Below, in pieces: positions 44,973 to 50,798 of a stretch of DNA of 64,000 bases (the first letter of the stretch is position 1; each line of letters starts with the position of its first letter). The position numbers were made by a program, and so were the translations under genes. A model generated the notes under the pieces. That model had not been told where the DNA came from and searched no databases. It saw nothing but the letters and a program-made list of their open reading frames with translations. The stretch comes from a virus. Location of the stretch: the IMG/VR virus record IMGVR_UViG_3300032954_000005, positions 1 to 64,000 of that record. One strand, given 5' to 3'.

Positions 44973-45004
44973 ATTGCCCCGCCTGATTCGCAGCCCGTAA
45001 CCCG

Positions 45005-45067
45005 TTGAAAATAAAGAAAATAAATCTTTAATTATTTTGTGTACAACGCTGAGAAAGGGTTTAGAAT
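45005..45067 (+). promoter_or_regulatory. Promoter with AT-rich upstream element driving the ribozyme-punctuated operon
   Basis: A/T tract 45005-45038, TGTACA-16 bp-TAGAAT; shares TACAACG...GGTTTA with the promoter at 19239. Confidence 0.55.
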
Positions 45068-45437
45068 TATCTTTCCTTACGGAATGGTTGTTCGGTTCGT
45101 TGAAAACAAAGGCAGGCGCGTAGGGCCCGAGAGAATCGGAGCCGCTCAGGGTGGTGCCTATCGTCGCGACGACGAGGGATGCAAGCGGGGCAGGCGCGGC
45201 CGGAATACGAAGCTGAAAAGCAAGACGCGGAGAATACGACGACGCGGGCGGCGCGAAAAACGGATGCTGTGAGCGAACGCGGGAGGCGAGGTCACGAAGG
45301 TCGACCTCAACGGCGGGAGCGGGCAATATGGTTCGGTCGCGGGGTGGGCGTACGGGTTGCGGACGTTGGCTGCTTTCAGTCGCACGAACTTTTCAAAACG
45401 TGTGAAGCCCCGCACCGGCATCGGGCGGGCAAATTTT

Positions 45438-45499
45438 GCAGAGGACGACCGCGGCGCAGACCGCGGCGGAATGCGCGGCCCAGGTTCCAAGCCCTGGGC
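45438..45499 (+). ncRNA. Twister ribozyme copy 1 (permuted, variant)
   Basis: GCA-GAGGA-P1 hairpin-G^AA-TGC...CCAGG-TTCCAAGC-CCTGG; G instead of U at the cleavage site and altered T2 spacing. Confidence 0.65.
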
Positions 45500-45548
45500 G
45501 ACATTTAACCCCAAGCGACGCGGCGCACGTACCGCGAAGGAGAACAGT

Positions 45549-45815
45549 ATGATGAATCAATACAAGTGCAGCAACTGTCACAGCTCCAACCTTCACCAAA
45601 GCAAGAGCAGCGAGCACGACGTTGTCTGTAACGACTGCCACATGACGACGGACAAGGTCACTGCCCTGAAGGCGCCCTGGGCGTACTGCGGTTTCGACGA
45701 GGTTCACGTGCCGCAGCACGACGGGGCAGAGCGCATCATCACCCGAAAGCAGGCGAAGGCGGAGGGAATCAAGCTCGCGCCTTACAAGTATTTTTACACA
45801 GCTTTGAAGTTCTAA
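45549..45815 (+). CDS. Small zinc-ribbon protein
   Basis: AAGGAG RBS; CSNC...CNDC. Confidence 0.7.
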   Translation: MMNQYKCSNCHSSNLHQSKSSEHDVVCNDCHMTTDKVTALKAPWAYCGFDEVHVPQHDGAERIITRKQAKAEGIKLAPYKYFYTALKF

Positions 45816-45816
45816 G

Positions 45817-45878
45817 CGCAGAGGACGACGATCGCCACGCGATCGTCGTAATGCGGCGCGCCGGTTCCAAGCCCGGCG
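45817..45878 (+). ncRNA. Twister ribozyme copy 2 (type-P5-like permutation)
   Basis: CGCA-GAGGA-CGACGATCGC/GCGATCGTCG-T^AA-TGCG-GC..CCGG-TTCCAAGC-CCGG; predicted cleavage 45849/45850. Confidence 0.88.
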
Positions 45879-45930
45879 GGTTCGTATAATAACGATGCGA
45901 CGCGGCGCACGTACCGCAGAGGAGAGCAAG

Positions 45931-47448
45931 ATGAACACAACGCAGTTCAGTCCGCTTCAGCAGCGCATCTTCAAGTTCGTCGCGGAGGAAACCGGGAACG
46001 CATCGATCGAGGCGGTCGCCGGGTCAGGCAAGACGACCACGATCGTGGCCGCCGCGTCGTACCTTCCGCCAACGTCGCGCAACCTCTTTCTGGCGTTCAA
46101 CAAGTCGATCGCCGAGGAGCTCGCGACACGCCTTCCCGCGCACGTCACGGCGAAGACGTTGAACAGCCTTGGGCACGGCGCGTGGGCCGCAAAGCTCCGC
46201 CCAGCCCGCCTAAAGCTCGACGCCAACAAGACGCGCGCCATCCTCGATAAGCGCGTCGTCGAGGCAGACAGAAAGCTGTACGGCTCCCTGGTGACGCGCC
46301 TCGTTGCGCTGGCGAAGTCCGCGGGCCTCGCACCCGCGGGTGCCCCAAACGCATATCCCCTGGTGGACGACACCCTCGATGCGTGGCTCGACATGATCGA
46401 GTACCACGACCTGGAGGTGCCCGAGGAGGGAAACGTCAACCGCGCGATCGACCTGGCGCGCAAGGTGCTCAGCGAGTCGATTCGGCAGGCGTTTCTTGGC
46501 TGCATCGACTTTGACGATCAGATCTACATGACGGTGGTCTACCGCGCTCCGATGAGCAGGTTTGACTTCGTGTTTGTCGATGAGGCGCAGGACCTTAACT
46601 GCATCCAGCACCAGCTGATTGCGATGGCAATCAAGTCGGGCGGTCGGCTCATCGCGGTGGGGGACCCCCGCCAGGCAATCTACGGCTTTCGTGGGGCGGA
46701 TGCGTCGAGCATGGAAAACCTGCAGCGGCGCTTTCGCACAGTAACGCTTCCGCTGTCGATCAGCTACCGCTGCCCACAGGCCGTGGTCCGCGAGGCGCAG
46801 AAGCTGGTTTCGCACATTCAGTCAAGCGAGACGGCGCCCGTCGGGGTTGTTGAAACGCTTGACGCGTACAACGCCGATACGTTTAACGACAGCGACGCAA
46901 TCGTGTGCCGCAACGCGCGACCCCTGGTCGCGCTCGCCTTCCAGCTGATTCGCGCCGGGCGTGGCTGCCGCGTCCTTGGGCGGGACATTGGCCAGGGCCT
47001 TCAGGCGCTCATAAAGAAGATGAACGCGGCCGACGTTGACGCGCTCGAGACCAAGCTTGACGCCTACCTCGACCGTGAAACGCGCCGCCTGCTCGCGAAG
47101 AACCAGGACGCGAAGGTCGCGGCGCTCGAGGACAAGGTCGACACCATCCGCCTGTTTATCGACCAGCTGGGCGAGGACGAGCGGACGATCGACGCGCTGT
47201 TTGGGAAGATCGACGCACTGTTCACCGACAACGGCCACGGAAAGCTTACGCTGTGCACCGTCCACAAGGCGAAGGGCCTCGAGTGGGAGCGCGTGTTCAT
47301 CCTCGACGCGCACCTCATGCCGTCGAAGTACGCGCGACAGGATTGGCAGCTGGCGCAGGAGACGAACATCCACTACGTGGCGATCACTCGCGCGAAGCGC
47401 GAGCTGCGCTACATCGACAGCGAAGGATTCAAAGCTAAGAAGCAGTAA
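45931..47448 (+). CDS. UvrD/Rep-like SF1 helicase
   Basis: AVAGSGKT, DEAQD, VGDPRQAIYGFRG, SYRCP, TVHKAKGLE, YVAITRA. Confidence 0.93.
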   Translation: MNTTQFSPLQQRIFKFVAEETGNASIEAVAGSGKTTTIVAAASYLPPTSRNLFLAFNKSIAEELATRLPAHVTAKTLNSLGHGAWAAKLRPARLKLDANKTRAILDKRVVEADRKLYGSLVTRLVALAKSAGLAPAGAPNAYPLVDDTLDAWLDMIEYHDLEVPEEGNVNRAIDLARKVLSESIRQAFLGCIDFDDQIYMTVVYRAPMSRFDFVFVDEAQDLNCIQHQLIAMAIKSGGRLIAVGDPRQAIYGFRGADASSMENLQRRFRTVTLPLSISYRCPQAVVREAQKLVSHIQSSETAPVGVVETLDAYNADTFNDSDAIVCRNARPLVALAFQLIRAGRGCRVLGRDIGQGLQALIKKMNAADVDALETKLDAYLDRETRRLLAKNQDAKVAALEDKVDTIRLFIDQLGEDERTIDALFGKIDALFTDNGHGKLTLCTVHKAKGLEWERVFILDAHLMPSKYARQDWQLAQETNIHYVAITRAKRELRYIDSEGFKAKKQ

Positions 47449-47453
47449 AGGGA

Positions 47454-47512
47454 CGCAGAGGACGCCGGCGATCGCCGGCGTAATGCGGCAGGCTGGGTTC
47501 CAAGCCCCCGGC
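47454..47512 (+). ncRNA. Twister ribozyme copy 3
   Basis: CGCA-GAGGA-CGCCGGC/GCCGGCG-T^AA-TGCG-GC..GGG-TTCCAAGC-CC; predicted cleavage 47481/47482. Confidence 0.88.
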
Positions 47513-47561
47513 GCGCAGAACACCAAGCGAGGCGGCGCGTGTACCGCCGAAGGAGAATGAA

Positions 47562-47741
47562 GTGACTAGCAAGCAAAAGAGCCAAAACTTCAAGCTGCGT
47601 ACAGCCTTGAAGCTGATCAAGCTGCACATCACGGAGGAGGCGAACGATCAAAACCGCCACCTTCACAACGCCGTTCAGCTCATCGTAGACGTGGCGAGGG
47701 AGCATAACCTTTTAATTGAGGAGGTGCGCCGTGCAGGTTGA
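47562..47741 (+). CDS. Small hypothetical protein (59 aa)
   Basis: GTG start after AAGGAG, translated by hand. Confidence 0.55.
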   Translation: MTSKQKSQNFKLRTALKLIKLHITEEANDQNRHLHNAVQLIVDVAREHNLLIEEVRRAG

Positions 47742-48222
47742 GATCGGGCAGGGCGGCAGGCTTACCACCGCCGCGGACGCGCTGAACTTCATCCTGGCCG
47801 GGAACGCCGTGTTCACGCTGGTGTCCCGGGCGACGAGCGCGCGGTACACCTACAAGGTGTCGCGCGCGGTCGACCGCGTGGGCAGGCCCAGCGCGACGCT
47901 GTTCAAGGAAGACACCGCCGGCCCGGTCTACTTCGTTTCGCTCCTGGCCGGGCCGGACAACACGGCGGACTACGTCTACCTTGGAATCATCCGGGACGGC
48001 GCGTTCCGTCTGACGCAGAAGAGCAAGCTGACAACCGCGTCGAAGCCCGTCCAGGCGTTCACGTGGACGCTCACGCGTCTGCTCCTCAGCCACCTTCCCC
48101 TGAACGTCGAGGTGTGGCACACGGGCAGGTGCGGGCGCTGCGCGCGGCTCCTCACCGTACCCGAAAGCGTGGCGCGCGGCATCGGCCCAGAGTGCGCGGC
48201 GCGAATGGATGGCGCCGCGTGA
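47731..48222 (+). CDS. DUF6011-like zinc-finger protein
   Basis: GRCGRCARLLTVPESVARGIGPECA. Confidence 0.8.
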   Translation: MQVEIGQGGRLTTAADALNFILAGNAVFTLVSRATSARYTYKVSRAVDRVGRPSATLFKEDTAGPVYFVSLLAGPDNTADYVYLGIIRDGAFRLTQKSKLTTASKPVQAFTWTLTRLLLSHLPLNVEVWHTGRCGRCARLLTVPESVARGIGPECAARMDGAA

Positions 48223-48530
48223 GCGGGCTGTATTTGCTCCACTTCGAGCCGCGGTATAGGCACGCCGGGCACTACCTTGGTTACGCAAAAAACATCTCCC
48301 AACGTGTTGCAGAGCATCGTGCGGGAAGAGCGCGAACGCCGCTGACTACGGCCGCGGCGCGCGCCGGGTGCTGGATGTTCCTGGTGCGCACGTGGGAGGG
48401 CGGGACACGCGACGACGAGCGCAGGCTCAAGGGCACGTCGCGCCCAACTACGGGAAGAACGGGCAGCCTCGCACGCCTCTGCCCGGCGTGCGCGGCGCTC
48501 AAACAGAAAGGAGAACGAAGTGGAAGTTGA
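48219..48530 (+). CDS. GIY-YIG family nuclease
   Basis: LYLLHF....RHAGHYLGYA....RVAEH...ERRLK. Confidence 0.75.
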   Translation: MSGLYLLHFEPRYRHAGHYLGYAKNISQRVAEHRAGRARTPLTTAAARAGCWMFLVRTWEGGTRDDERRLKGTSRPTTGRTGSLARLCPACAALKQKGERSGS

Positions 48531-48760
48531 GCAGCTGATCGAATTTTTATCGACCGTAACAGACAAGGAGGTGCGCATGGCGCAGCAGACGTTGTGCAGG
48601 GGGCCTGCGGGTATTCACCGCATCACGCGGGAGGGCGTCGCGCCCGGCTACCGCTGGCGCTGCGTGGACTGCAACGGGCAGTTCAAGATCGCGCCATCAG
48701 CCTACAACCTAGACCTGGCGCGCGAGCGTCAGCTTAACCAAACAACGAAAGCGAGGTAGC

Positions 48761-48943
48761 ATGAACGTCTCAATCAAGAACGGTGTTCTCACGATCACCA
48801 TCCCCGTCAACAAGGACCCGCTCCCGGAGTCGAAGTCGAAGAAATCGCTCGTCGTCGCCTCCACCAACGGAAACGTCGTGACCAAGGAGCTTGTCAACGG
48901 CAAGCCCCTGGTCATCGGCCTCAACGCCTACGTGAAGGTGTAA
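48761..48943 (+). CDS. Small hypothetical protein
   Basis: GAGG RBS; L.ITI......SKS.KS..VASTNGN...IGLNAY. Confidence 0.7.
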   Translation: MNVSIKNGVLTITIPVNKDPLPESKSKKSLVVASTNGNVVTKELVNGKPLVIGLNAYVKV

Positions 48944-48946
48944 CTT

Positions 48947-48990
48947 CGCAGAGGACGGCGCGCGCAGTACGGCGCGCCGTAATGCGGCGG
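48947..48990 (+). ncRNA. Truncated twister ribozyme copy 4 (P1/P2/L1 only); 44-bp exact repeat of 49187-49230
   Basis: Identical 44-mer CGCAGAGGACGGCGCGCGCAGTACGGCGCGCCGTAATGCGGCGG; no P4/L4 hairpin follows. Confidence 0.8.
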
Positions 48991-49024
48991 AAAATAAGGC
49001 GAAGCTTAAGCTAAAGGAGGCAGT

Positions 49025-49186
49025 GTGATTACAGAGCTGAAAGCCGTGGAAACTGCTATGCGCAGCTTTATCAGCAATTGGAGCCAAGGGCTAAAAGATG
49101 ATGGGCTTTTCGACAAAGCTCGTGCGATCGCTGACAGCCTTTCAAATCTAGCTGCTGCGATTGAATCCAGCGAGGACAACGTATAA
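49025..49186 (+). CDS. Small lower-GC hypothetical protein (53 aa)
   Basis: AAGGAGG RBS, GTG start, TAA directly before ribozyme copy 5. Confidence 0.6.
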   Translation: MITELKAVETAMRSFISNWSQGLKDDGLFDKARAIADSLSNLAAAIESSEDNV

Positions 49187-49249
49187 CGCAGAGGACGGCG
49201 CGCGCAGTACGGCGCGCCGTAATGCGGCGGTCGCGGTTCCAAGCCCGCG
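49187..49249 (+). ncRNA. Twister ribozyme copy 5
   Basis: CGCA-GAGGA-CGGCGCGC/GCGCGCCG-T^AA-TGCG-GC..CGCGG-TTCCAAGC-CCGCG; predicted cleavage 49220/49221. Confidence 0.88.
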
Positions 49250-49279
49250 CACGCAGAGCCTAGAAAAGGAGGTAGTACA

Positions 49280-49471
49280 ATGTACCAGCGAATCATAAGG
49301 CAGACCCTGGGCTGTAACGCGCTGATGGCGGCGCTCGTCGAGGGCGTCATCCGCCAGGAGGCCCCCAACCACAACCTGGACGCGCTGTCGCGCGTCGAAC
49401 TCGAGGACGCGATCGTGACGGCGTACCGCGTCGTCGAGTACGGCTACAACGTCGTCATCGGGGAGGCGTAA
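49280..49471 (+). CDS. Hypothetical protein
   Basis: AAGGAGG RBS, 63 aa. Confidence 0.65.
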   Translation: MYQRIIRQTLGCNALMAALVEGVIRQEAPNHNLDALSRVELEDAIVTAYRVVEYGYNVVIGEA

Positions 49472-49472
49472 C

Positions 49473-49796
49473 GTGGCGACGAACAAGGTGCACCAGAAGG
49501 ACGTGCGCGTCGGCGCGGTCTACGCCGTGAAGGTCAGCGGCGCGATCGCGCCCGTGCGCATCGACGCACGGGACGAGTACTTCATTCGCGGTAAAAAGCT
49601 CGTGCGCTGGAATGGTACGAGCCTACGCACGAACCTGAAGGTCTACGTGCGCAGCGCCGCGAAGCTGCGCTACGAGCTTATTAGATGCGAGGGCGGGTGC
49701 GGGCGCTGGATTGAAAAGCTCACCACGCCCTCACGGTGCAGGGCCTGCAAGGGCCGCGCGCTCATCAACGAGGAAAATAATGCGGCGCCCTCGTAG
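49473..49796 (+). CDS. Hypothetical protein with C-terminal Cys cluster
   Basis: 107 aa; V.VGAVY.VKVSG pattern. Confidence 0.6.
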   Translation: MATNKVHQKDVRVGAVYAVKVSGAIAPVRIDARDEYFIRGKKLVRWNGTSLRTNLKVYVRSAAKLRYELIRCEGGCGRWIEKLTTPSRCRACKGRALINEENNAAPS

Positions 49797-49987
49797 AAAG
49801 CGCCGCCACCTGACCCTTGAGGGAGTAGTCGCGCGCGCCCTGCGCGACTACCTCCTGGGCGTCCGCCGCGGCGACGCGTCGCGGACGCCGCGCGCCCGCG
49901 CGCGAACCCTCGAGCGGCGCGGCCCGCGCTACGGCTACCGCCGCCGCGTCAACAACCCCCTGAGCTGGTTTTGAAAAAGGAGAACGC

Positions 49988-50290
49988 ATGAACCTGTCGG
50001 CGCTACTACGCAACGCGGCGCAGAAGCTGTTTTACCGCACAAGGCACGAGGCCCAGTTCAGCGACCAGCAGCGCGCCGCGCAGGCCGTTGCCCAGGAGAA
50101 GGCGGCGGAGGCTGAGCAACACGAAACGTTTAAGGACGCGCGCCCACTCCACCACGGCAACAAGCGGACGCGAGGAGGCGGCACGGCGCGCTGCCGCTGC
50201 GCATCGAAGGCGCTCATTCCCGTGTGGTGCCCGCGGCACCGGGCCTACGTGCTGAACGGCGCCGCCGACCGCGAGCTGACTCACAAATAA
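49988..50290 (+). CDS. Hypothetical protein
   Basis: AAGGAG RBS, 100 aa. Confidence 0.6.
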   Translation: MNLSALLRNAAQKLFYRTRHEAQFSDQQRAAQAVAQEKAAEAEQHETFKDARPLHHGNKRTRGGGTARCRCASKALIPVWCPRHRAYVLNGAADRELTHK

Positions 50291-50293
50291 TTA

Positions 50294-50322
50294 TTTCAAT
50301 TTTACGCGGCCTGTGGTACAAT
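50294..50322 (+). promoter_or_regulatory. Extended -10 promoter
   Basis: TTTCAA-17 bp-TACAAT with TG at the extended -10 position. Confidence 0.55.
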
Positions 50323-50385
50323 GGTCGTCGTTGAACAAACCATCCGGCGCCGACCGCGCCGCTCAAAATCAAAAGGAGAACCACC

Positions 50386-50688
50386 ATGCCAACCGAAACC
50401 GCCACCCCGCGCGCGAAGTTCACGTCCGTCGCGCCCACGAAGAAGACGAAGAAGAGCGCGAAGGCCGTGAAGAAAAGCGCGTCGACCGGCGCGCGCAGCA
50501 CGTACGCCACGGACCAGCGGAAGATCAAGGTACTGGCGAAGGAAAACCCCAAGCGGAAAGGGTCAGCAGCCTACCAGCGCTTCGAGCTGTACAGGAAGTC
50601 GACGACCGTCGCCGACTTCATCGCGAAGGGCGGGCGCACGATCGACCTCGCGTATGATCAGTCTCATGGGTTCATCAAGCTGGATTAG
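50386..50688 (+). CDS. Basic putative DNA-binding protein with Lys-rich N-terminal tail
   Basis: KKTKKSAKAVKK tail plus ENPKRKGSAAYQRFELY...DLAYD..HGFI domain; AAGGAG RBS. Confidence 0.7.
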   Translation: MPTETATPRAKFTSVAPTKKTKKSAKAVKKSASTGARSTYATDQRKIKVLAKENPKRKGSAAYQRFELYRKSTTVADFIAKGGRTIDLAYDQSHGFIKLD

Positions 50689-50768
50689 GTAAACCACGTC
50701 GGGTCTCTAAAACGCGCCCCTGGGTCACCGGAGCGCACTAGCGACAGGCCTTACGCGCCCGTCGCCGC

Positions 50769-50798
50769 GGCCCTGGCCAACGCGGCCAGGGCCTTTTT
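50769..50798 (+). terminator. Rho-independent terminator
   Basis: GGCCCTGGCC-AACGC-GGCCAGGGCC-TTTTT between convergent arms. Confidence 0.85.

Follow-up and report, generated by a model that had tools for sequence, protein, structure and literature searches.

The DNA analysed here (the window, 64,000 nt) is the first 64 kb of the 77,248-nt IMG/VR virus record IMGVR_UViG_3300032954_000005, which CheckV rates as 100% complete. On its plus strand, four intact type-P5 twister ribozymes (Tw1, Tw2, Tw3, and Tw5) and one truncated copy (the half copy) lie in the intergenic gaps of a rightward replication and accessory operon of this uncultivated tailed phage (Table 1). We consider it probable, at roughly 0.7, that the four intact ribozymes are functional and cut the operon transcript, so that its segments would be stabilised and translated separately.

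Type-P5 twisters between the genes of a phage operon

The window was scanned with all Rfam 15 models using cmscan. Three matches exceeded the gathering score, all of them to Twister-P5 (RF02684; gathering score 37.6 bits) and all on the plus strand, namely Tw2, Tw3, and Tw5, with E-values of 1e-8 to 1e-9. Tw1 and the half copy both scored just below the cut-off in a permissive scan. An earlier note, made from the sequence of the window, had described five twister copies at these same places on this strand. The Infernal search recovered all five, of which four stand as ribozymes and the copy at 48947 turned out to be a truncated duplicate. No further twister match was found in the rest of the 77,248-nt record or in 14 control genomes.

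Twister-P5 was the best family within clan CL00120, in agreement with the P5-type circular permutation proposed in the note, in which P1 is closed by a loop (here of 4-8 nt). In the Rfam alignments, the upper-case consensus positions of L1, the cut site, and L4 are all kept in Tw2, Tw3, and Tw5. The segments AGAG, AAUGC, GC, GGU, and CAAGCC are present in Tw1, Tw2, Tw3, and Tw5, and L4 is missing from the half copy. Counted on the sequence, the four cut sites that had been predicted coincide with the N^AA position of the model. Folding energies of the P1 tails are -14 to -20 kcal/mol.

All copies lie on the coding strand of the UvrD helicase and DUF6011 genes, so the RNAs of the operon would be made in the ribozyme sense. 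Their positions are exactly the gaps between non-overlapping genes. The five genes of the L-P block (47562-48943) overlap (47741/47731, 48222/48219, and 48530/48520) or abut (48759/48761), and no ribozyme is found at the overlapping or abutting junctions L/M, M/N, N/O, O/P, and R/S. The distance from a TAA stop codon to the start of the copy is 1 nt for Tw2, 5 nt for Tw3, 3 nt for the half copy, and 0 nt for Tw5, in keeping with the 0-5 nt that had been noted for four copies. The description of the copies as lying at gene boundaries holds for these four; Tw1 follows no gene and is preceded by a promoter-like, non-coding region of ~500 nt.

Tw1 deviates from the consensus in having G instead of U at -1, a 3-bp P2, and one bulge in P1. 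With our own covariance model (R1), it scores 47.4 bits. Its orthologue in the closest relative of the phage, IMGVR_UViG_3300031251_000054 (L037:1023-1081), shares its P1 and short P2 and has a P4 with compensating changes (CAG/CUG versus ACG/CGU). The nucleotide 5' of the twister scissile bond is less conserved or non-conserved (PMC5408937). Because the -1 nucleotide is not conserved and the orthologue retains a compensated P4, we rate Tw1 as probably active.

Covariation and stop-codon spacing across related copies

An exact-pattern scan for the GGA/UUCC variant yielded 31 stretches on 30 other viral contigs; the exact variant also occurred in 3 metagenome-assembled genomes among 185,579 species genomes, which gave no clue to the host. 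When the records of those contigs were searched with Rfam, up to 8, 6, 5, and 4 copies appeared, in same-strand clusters spanning a few kb. We built a covariance model from 20 copies and gathered 55 distinct copies (the window and loci L006-L047; 31 viral records). Pairs were counted over the full structure, including both pseudoknots, and compared with a control in which the partners were slid by 1-3 columns and with 500 shuffles.

In the alignment of the 55 copies, which was fitted to the model and hence favours the structure, with the T1 pairs lying outside the model, 96.3% of the cells are paired, versus 28-42% with slid partners. Changes on both sides were observed in 15 of the 19 pairs, and none of the 500 shuffles (0/500) reached the observed values. 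Such two-sided changes affect all pairs of P1 (7/7), P4 (3/3), and T1 (3/3). In T1, 98.7% of the cells are paired, through combinations such as GGA/UCC, GGG/CCC, GUG/CAC, GCA/UGC, UGG/CCA, and CGG/CCG. P2 (98% paired) is nearly invariant, leaving most of it uninformative, and T2 (96% paired) is almost invariant and hence uninformative. The covariance-model scores and the covariation in P1, P4, and T1 fully support the assignment of Tw2, Tw3, Tw5, and Tw1 as type-P5 twister ribozymes.

The earlier note held that UCC in L4 and GGA in L1 had co-varied. This is correct as a compensatory swap from G-C to A-U relative to the Rfam consensus, and does not apply among the window copies, where the pair is invariant. 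The consensus G-C replaces A-U in 12 of the 52 related copies, and the swap is within the variation of the family.

A strong hairpin, rich in G+C and directly following a gene, might also be an ordinary intergenic palindrome, such as a terminator or an element resembling repetitive extragenic palindromes (REP-like), rather than part of a ribozyme. We give this explanation a negligible chance. P1 is not followed by a U-tract, a terminator scan finds none at these sites, the Rfam E-values are those given above, and a simple hairpin cannot explain the covariation in the pseudoknot.

The spacing to the upstream gene is likewise shared. In 41 of the 55 copies (38 of the 50 outside the window), an open frame of at least 60 codons ends at a stop codon and the ribozyme starts -2 to 6 nt from it, a spacing found at 4.5% of 22,000 positions drawn at random from these loci. 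Most of the 55 copies have a Shine-Dalgarno sequence and a start codon on their 3' side, usually at a distance of 20-35 nt. To judge from the size of the ribosome footprint, P2, L1, and the first part of P1 would be covered by a ribosome terminating at such a stop codon.

Such coverage, at the 41 copies with this close spacing, would also suit a different function, in which cleavage acts as a destabilising switch that lowers or times the expression of the genes. Either the host would degrade the new ends, or cleavage would compete with ribosomes terminating at the abutting stop codon, tying the output to translation or to ionic conditions. The glmS ribozyme is a precedent for control of this kind, and salt-dependent tuning has been suggested for the hammerhead of HF1/HF2 (PMC3088659). 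We regard a switch as quite unlikely here. The twisters carry no attached ligand-binding or sensor domain, the stable terminal hairpins on the products fit protection better than decay, and the tight spacing may just mirror the compactness of phage genomes.

Proposed transcript processing and possible exchange of small genes

Twister cleavage leaves a 2',3'-cyclic phosphate and a 5'-OH end (PMC5408937). From this chemistry and the gene layout, we infer that the operon transcript processes itself. Each twister would fold as the RNA polymerase passes, forming P2, the P1 hairpin, P4, and the pseudoknots T1 and T2, and self-cutting between N and AA would take place at each of Tw1, Tw2, Tw3, and Tw5. 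The predicted products are a leader fragment, a J unit of ~380 nt, a K unit of 1632 nt, an L-M-N-O-P-Q unit of 1739 nt, and the RNA from R onward. As the four coding units would hold 1, 1, 6, and at least 3 genes, the description "gene-sized" in the note does not fit them. Each upstream product would end 28-34 nt after the stop codon in a G+C-rich P1 hairpin bearing the 2',3'-cyclic phosphate, and on each downstream product a 5'-OH end would precede, in this order, the P4 hairpin, a short leader, and the Shine-Dalgarno site. The likely benefit would be that the stability and translation of a segment no longer depend on its neighbours or on host RNases. The model is plausible and not new: Perreault et al. 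proposed in 2011 that long phage transcripts are processed into operon- or gene-length mRNAs (PMC3088659), and a 2019 review (Weinberg) extends the processing idea to twisters, with their role still undefined (PMC6765202).

A host ligase of the RtcB type might instead act on the segments between the ribozymes, yielding circular or spliced RNAs. The 5'-OH and 2',3'-cyclic phosphate ends match what RtcB needs. This possibility was raised by Perreault et al. in 2011, whose own search for RNAs of this kind from hammerhead arrays was negative (PMC3088659). In the phage record, no RtcB gene was found, and complementary sequences able to hold the ends close to each other are lacking. We consider ligation very improbable.

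The distribution of the ribozymes among related phages bears on what they do. Helicase K has relatives at 80 loci in viral contigs. The only one of these loci with twisters is that of the closest relative (86% amino acid identity in the helicase), which carries eight. Genes G, K, R, S, and T are common to the two phages, with R, S, and T showing 56%, 56%, and 60% amino acid identity to L037/L048. Between these shared genes, the window and the relative hold different small genes, each bounded by twisters, and the P1 sequences of several copies, in the same phage or across the two, are almost the same. The twister directly 5' of the helicase gene is kept in the relative (L037:4782-4836), as an orthologue of Tw2 in which P1 and P4 are fully compensated. 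Around the remaining 79 helicase loci (32-45% identity), no twister lies within 4 kb; 17 of these relatives were searched with Rfam and gave no match to any family. The absence of twisters near the distant helicases indicates that the ribozymes are lineage-specific and tied to the variable small-gene parts of the operon. The arrangement that the note had proposed to look for in related phages is found in the closest relative and not in the 79 distant ones. Separately, one twister of the closest relative (L037:3083-3180) reaches 57.9 bits with the local model despite an insertion of ~45 nt in its P1 loop.

Several points weigh against self-processing as the function of the array. Tw1 is under the Rfam cut-off, with G at -1 and a shortened P2. 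The ribozymes are, to judge from the 79 relatives with no twister nearby, dispensable for the helicase gene set. The effect of a 5'-OH on mRNA stability depends on the host RNases, and in Bacillus the product of the glmS ribozyme is degraded by RNase J1.

The half copy is an exact 44-nt duplicate (100%) of the 5' part of Tw5 (49187-49230), at a spacing of 240 nt, and the similarity then ends. It contains P2, L1, P1, UAA, P2', and GC only; neither Rfam nor our own model aligns an L4, in line with the earlier observation that only four copies continue into the P4 half. Because neither T1 nor T2 can form without L4, the half copy is probably catalytically dead. It still forms the P1 hairpin (-19.7 kcal/mol). 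Rescue by the P4/L4 of Tw5, 240 nt downstream, was considered and rejected, as it would provide only 5 tertiary pairs and the identical, adjacent 5' half competes.

The two 44-nt repeats enclose the orphan gene Q, whose G+C content is 0.48 (0.53-0.69 in the other genes) and for which no relatives were found in viral contigs. The repeat around this low-GC gene looks like a scar left where a gene was inserted or duplicated at a ribozyme, and the half copy would be the dead 5' half left by the duplication that accompanied the insertion of Q. Two wetland DNA runs gave short, low-depth contigs, none of which spans the 240-nt repeat unit. Low-depth contigs from the second wetland metagenome (run X2) match the end of gene P exactly and diverge at its stop codon (48942), 5' of the half ribozyme; a mosaic boundary at the end of gene P is hinted at.

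Besides cutting RNA, the twisters might serve as standard boundaries of gene cassettes, recombination between copies inserting, deleting, and swapping small genes. We put this forward tentatively, with a modest minority of our confidence. If it were true, each incoming gene would bring its own processing site, the repeat around Q would be a fresh footprint, and the differing twister-bounded genes in the closest relative would be the long-term result.

A stricter version, which we think unlikely, would make the ribozymes mainly portable cassette boundaries, that is, gene-end sequences of ~55 nt that promote homologous recombination, with little or no selective role for cleavage. The exact direct repeat of the ribozyme 5' half around Q would fit, as would the entirely different twister-bounded small genes found between G, the helicase gene, and R-S-T in the two phages, the patchy distribution among phages with the same helicase family, and the near-identical P1 of several copies. 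However, the compensatory changes keep the stems and T1 despite drift, which argues for selection on a folded catalytic RNA rather than on DNA identity, and the diverged P1 and P4 leave less homology for recombination. Processing would itself be compatible with such boundaries.

Self-processing by four functional twisters remains the reading we prefer. The role of bacterial and phage twisters is unproven, and the locus offers a compact test case, with four intact ribozymes, a natural dead copy, a 3.8-kb operon, and a recognisable helicase. The start abutting a stop codon, with a Shine-Dalgarno sequence and start codon usually close behind, and the ribozyme-flanked gene insertion sharpen the hypotheses and leave the class of the element unchanged. 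The most useful by-products of the analysis are the footprint formed by the half copy and the Q cassette and the stop-abutting rule.

Flanking features and known systems

The window has a G+C content of ~63%. Its minus strand carries tail and baseplate genes, and a long plus-strand block encodes a primase, a DNA polymerase, two helicases, and a methyltransferase. No tRNAs were found in the window. Among cultured phages, only weak helicase similarity was detected (66-77% over 150-780 nt, to phages of Pseudomonas, Dinoroseobacter, and Pseudanabaena), and there is no annotated close relative. The DNA runs that contain sequence of the phage are from wetland metagenomes only, and no RNA run was found with sequence from 45300-49500. 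Gene J, like gene Q, has no relatives that were found in viral contigs.

Table 1. Ribozymes, genes, and leader elements of the operon (window coordinates)
Feature	Positions	Strand	Description
AT-rich promoter-like stretch	45003-45070	+	probable start of the ribozyme-bearing transcription unit
Tw1	45437-45496	+	twister-P5 variant; Rfam 35.2 bits, E 3e-4 (permissive scan); predicted cut 45469/45470
Leader motif GCGAC-GCGGCGCACGTACCGC	45515-45535	+	just 5' of the gene J Shine-Dalgarno sequence
Gene J	45549-45815	+	88 amino acids, Zn-ribbon-like orphan; weak Zn_ribbon_8 match
Tw2	45817-45876	+	twister-P5; Rfam 55.2 bits; predicted cut 45849/45850; P4 extendable to ~45879
Gene K	45931-47448	+	UvrD-type superfamily 1 DNA helicase, 505 amino acids; Pfam UvrD-helicase 2.8e-23, phrog_1967 3.3e-108
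Tw3	47454-47509	+	twister-P5; Rfam 52.0 bits; predicted cut 47481/47482
Gene L	47562-47741	+	
Gene M	47731-48222	+	DUF6011
Gene N	48219-48530	+	103 amino acids; weak GIY-YIG nuclease match (E 0.0015, below Pfam cut-off)
Gene O	48520-48759	+	
Gene P	48761-48943	+	
Half copy	48947-48990	+	truncated twister; Rfam 34.3 bits (match 48947-49007, permissive scan)
Gene Q	49025-49186	+	53-amino-acid orphan between two 44-nt repeats
Tw5	49187-49248	+	twister-P5; Rfam 58.8 bits, E 1e-9; predicted cut 49220/49221
Genes R (49280-49471), S, T	49280-50290	+	3' of the last ribozyme; counterparts in the closest relative

An AT-rich island lies ~400 nt 5' of Tw1 in this 63% GC genome. Within it, TGTACA-16-TAGAAT at 45040-45067 matches a sigma-70-like site at 9/12 positions by consensus scan only, and a repeat, CGTTGAAAA(T/C)AAAG, occurs at 45003 and 45098, 95 nt apart. 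The island (45003-45111) is a possible promoter and operator of the ribozyme-bearing operon. The 370 nt from the promoter-like site to Tw1 are rich in purines and contain no convincing gene. A consensus scan found no terminator-like sites on the plus strand from 45437 to 50769. On this strand, gene U is followed at 50769-50798 by a strong hairpin resembling an intrinsic terminator (10 pairs and then TTTTT), and a -10-like element, TACAAT, lies at 50317-50322, just 5' of gene U. The pattern suggests that gene U may form a short, separate transcription unit after the ribozyme operon.

The spacers after Tw1, Tw2, and Tw3 are 52-54 nt long, and each contains a private 21-nt motif. Besides the copy listed in Table 1, it is found at 45897-45917 and 47527-47547, in every case between the ribozyme and the Shine-Dalgarno sequence, and only for genes J, K, and L. 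Its core is GCGGCGC(AC/GT)GTACCGC, and the 16-mer core with up to 2 mismatches occurs in the window only at 45520, 45902, and 47532. The motif together with the Shine-Dalgarno sequence had no exact match in other IMG/VR viral contigs. Because its folding is not unusually stable (z-scores of 0.4 to 1.1), we do not claim it as a structured element. Candidate roles are a site bound by a protein or a translational operator; alternatively, the motif may simply reflect a recent duplication of the leader.

Polycistronic mRNAs of phage T7 are cut between genes by RNase III, which creates 3' hairpins that protect them against exonucleases. The twister operon would resemble this system in its intergenic cuts and in the hairpin 3' ends of its mRNAs. 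RNase III is a host protein that leaves a 5'-phosphate and a 3'-OH, whereas the RNA of the twister operon is predicted to cut itself and to carry 5'-OH and 2',3'-cyclic phosphate ends. The parallel with T7 drawn in the earlier note is apt as a way of working; it is an analogy of function only and does not extend to membership of the T7 system.

The ribozymes themselves follow the type-P5 twister (RF02684), a class of Roth et al. (2014), as it is outlined in PMC5408937. They share with it the element order (P2-L1-P1 hairpin-N^AA-P2'-T2-linker-P4/L4), the conserved nucleotides of L1 and L4, and both pseudoknots; three window copies score well above the cut-off. They differ in that T1 has A-U where the consensus has G-C, in the G at -1 and 3-bp P2 of Tw1, and in the one truncated copy.

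The closest parallel in arrangement is provided by the hammerhead clusters of prophages (Perreault 2011, PMC3088659), in which several ribozymes likewise lie on one strand between genes or short blocks of phage operons, the flanked genes are not constant, and the same mRNA-processing hypothesis was advanced. An archaeal-virus hammerhead is located just 5' of a helicase gene (PMC3088659). The hammerheads belong to another ribozyme class, and their cleavage was demonstrated in vitro and in E. coli, whereas that of the twisters in the window is predicted. The array is a clean example of an arrangement proposed for phages since 2011, rather than a new kind of element.

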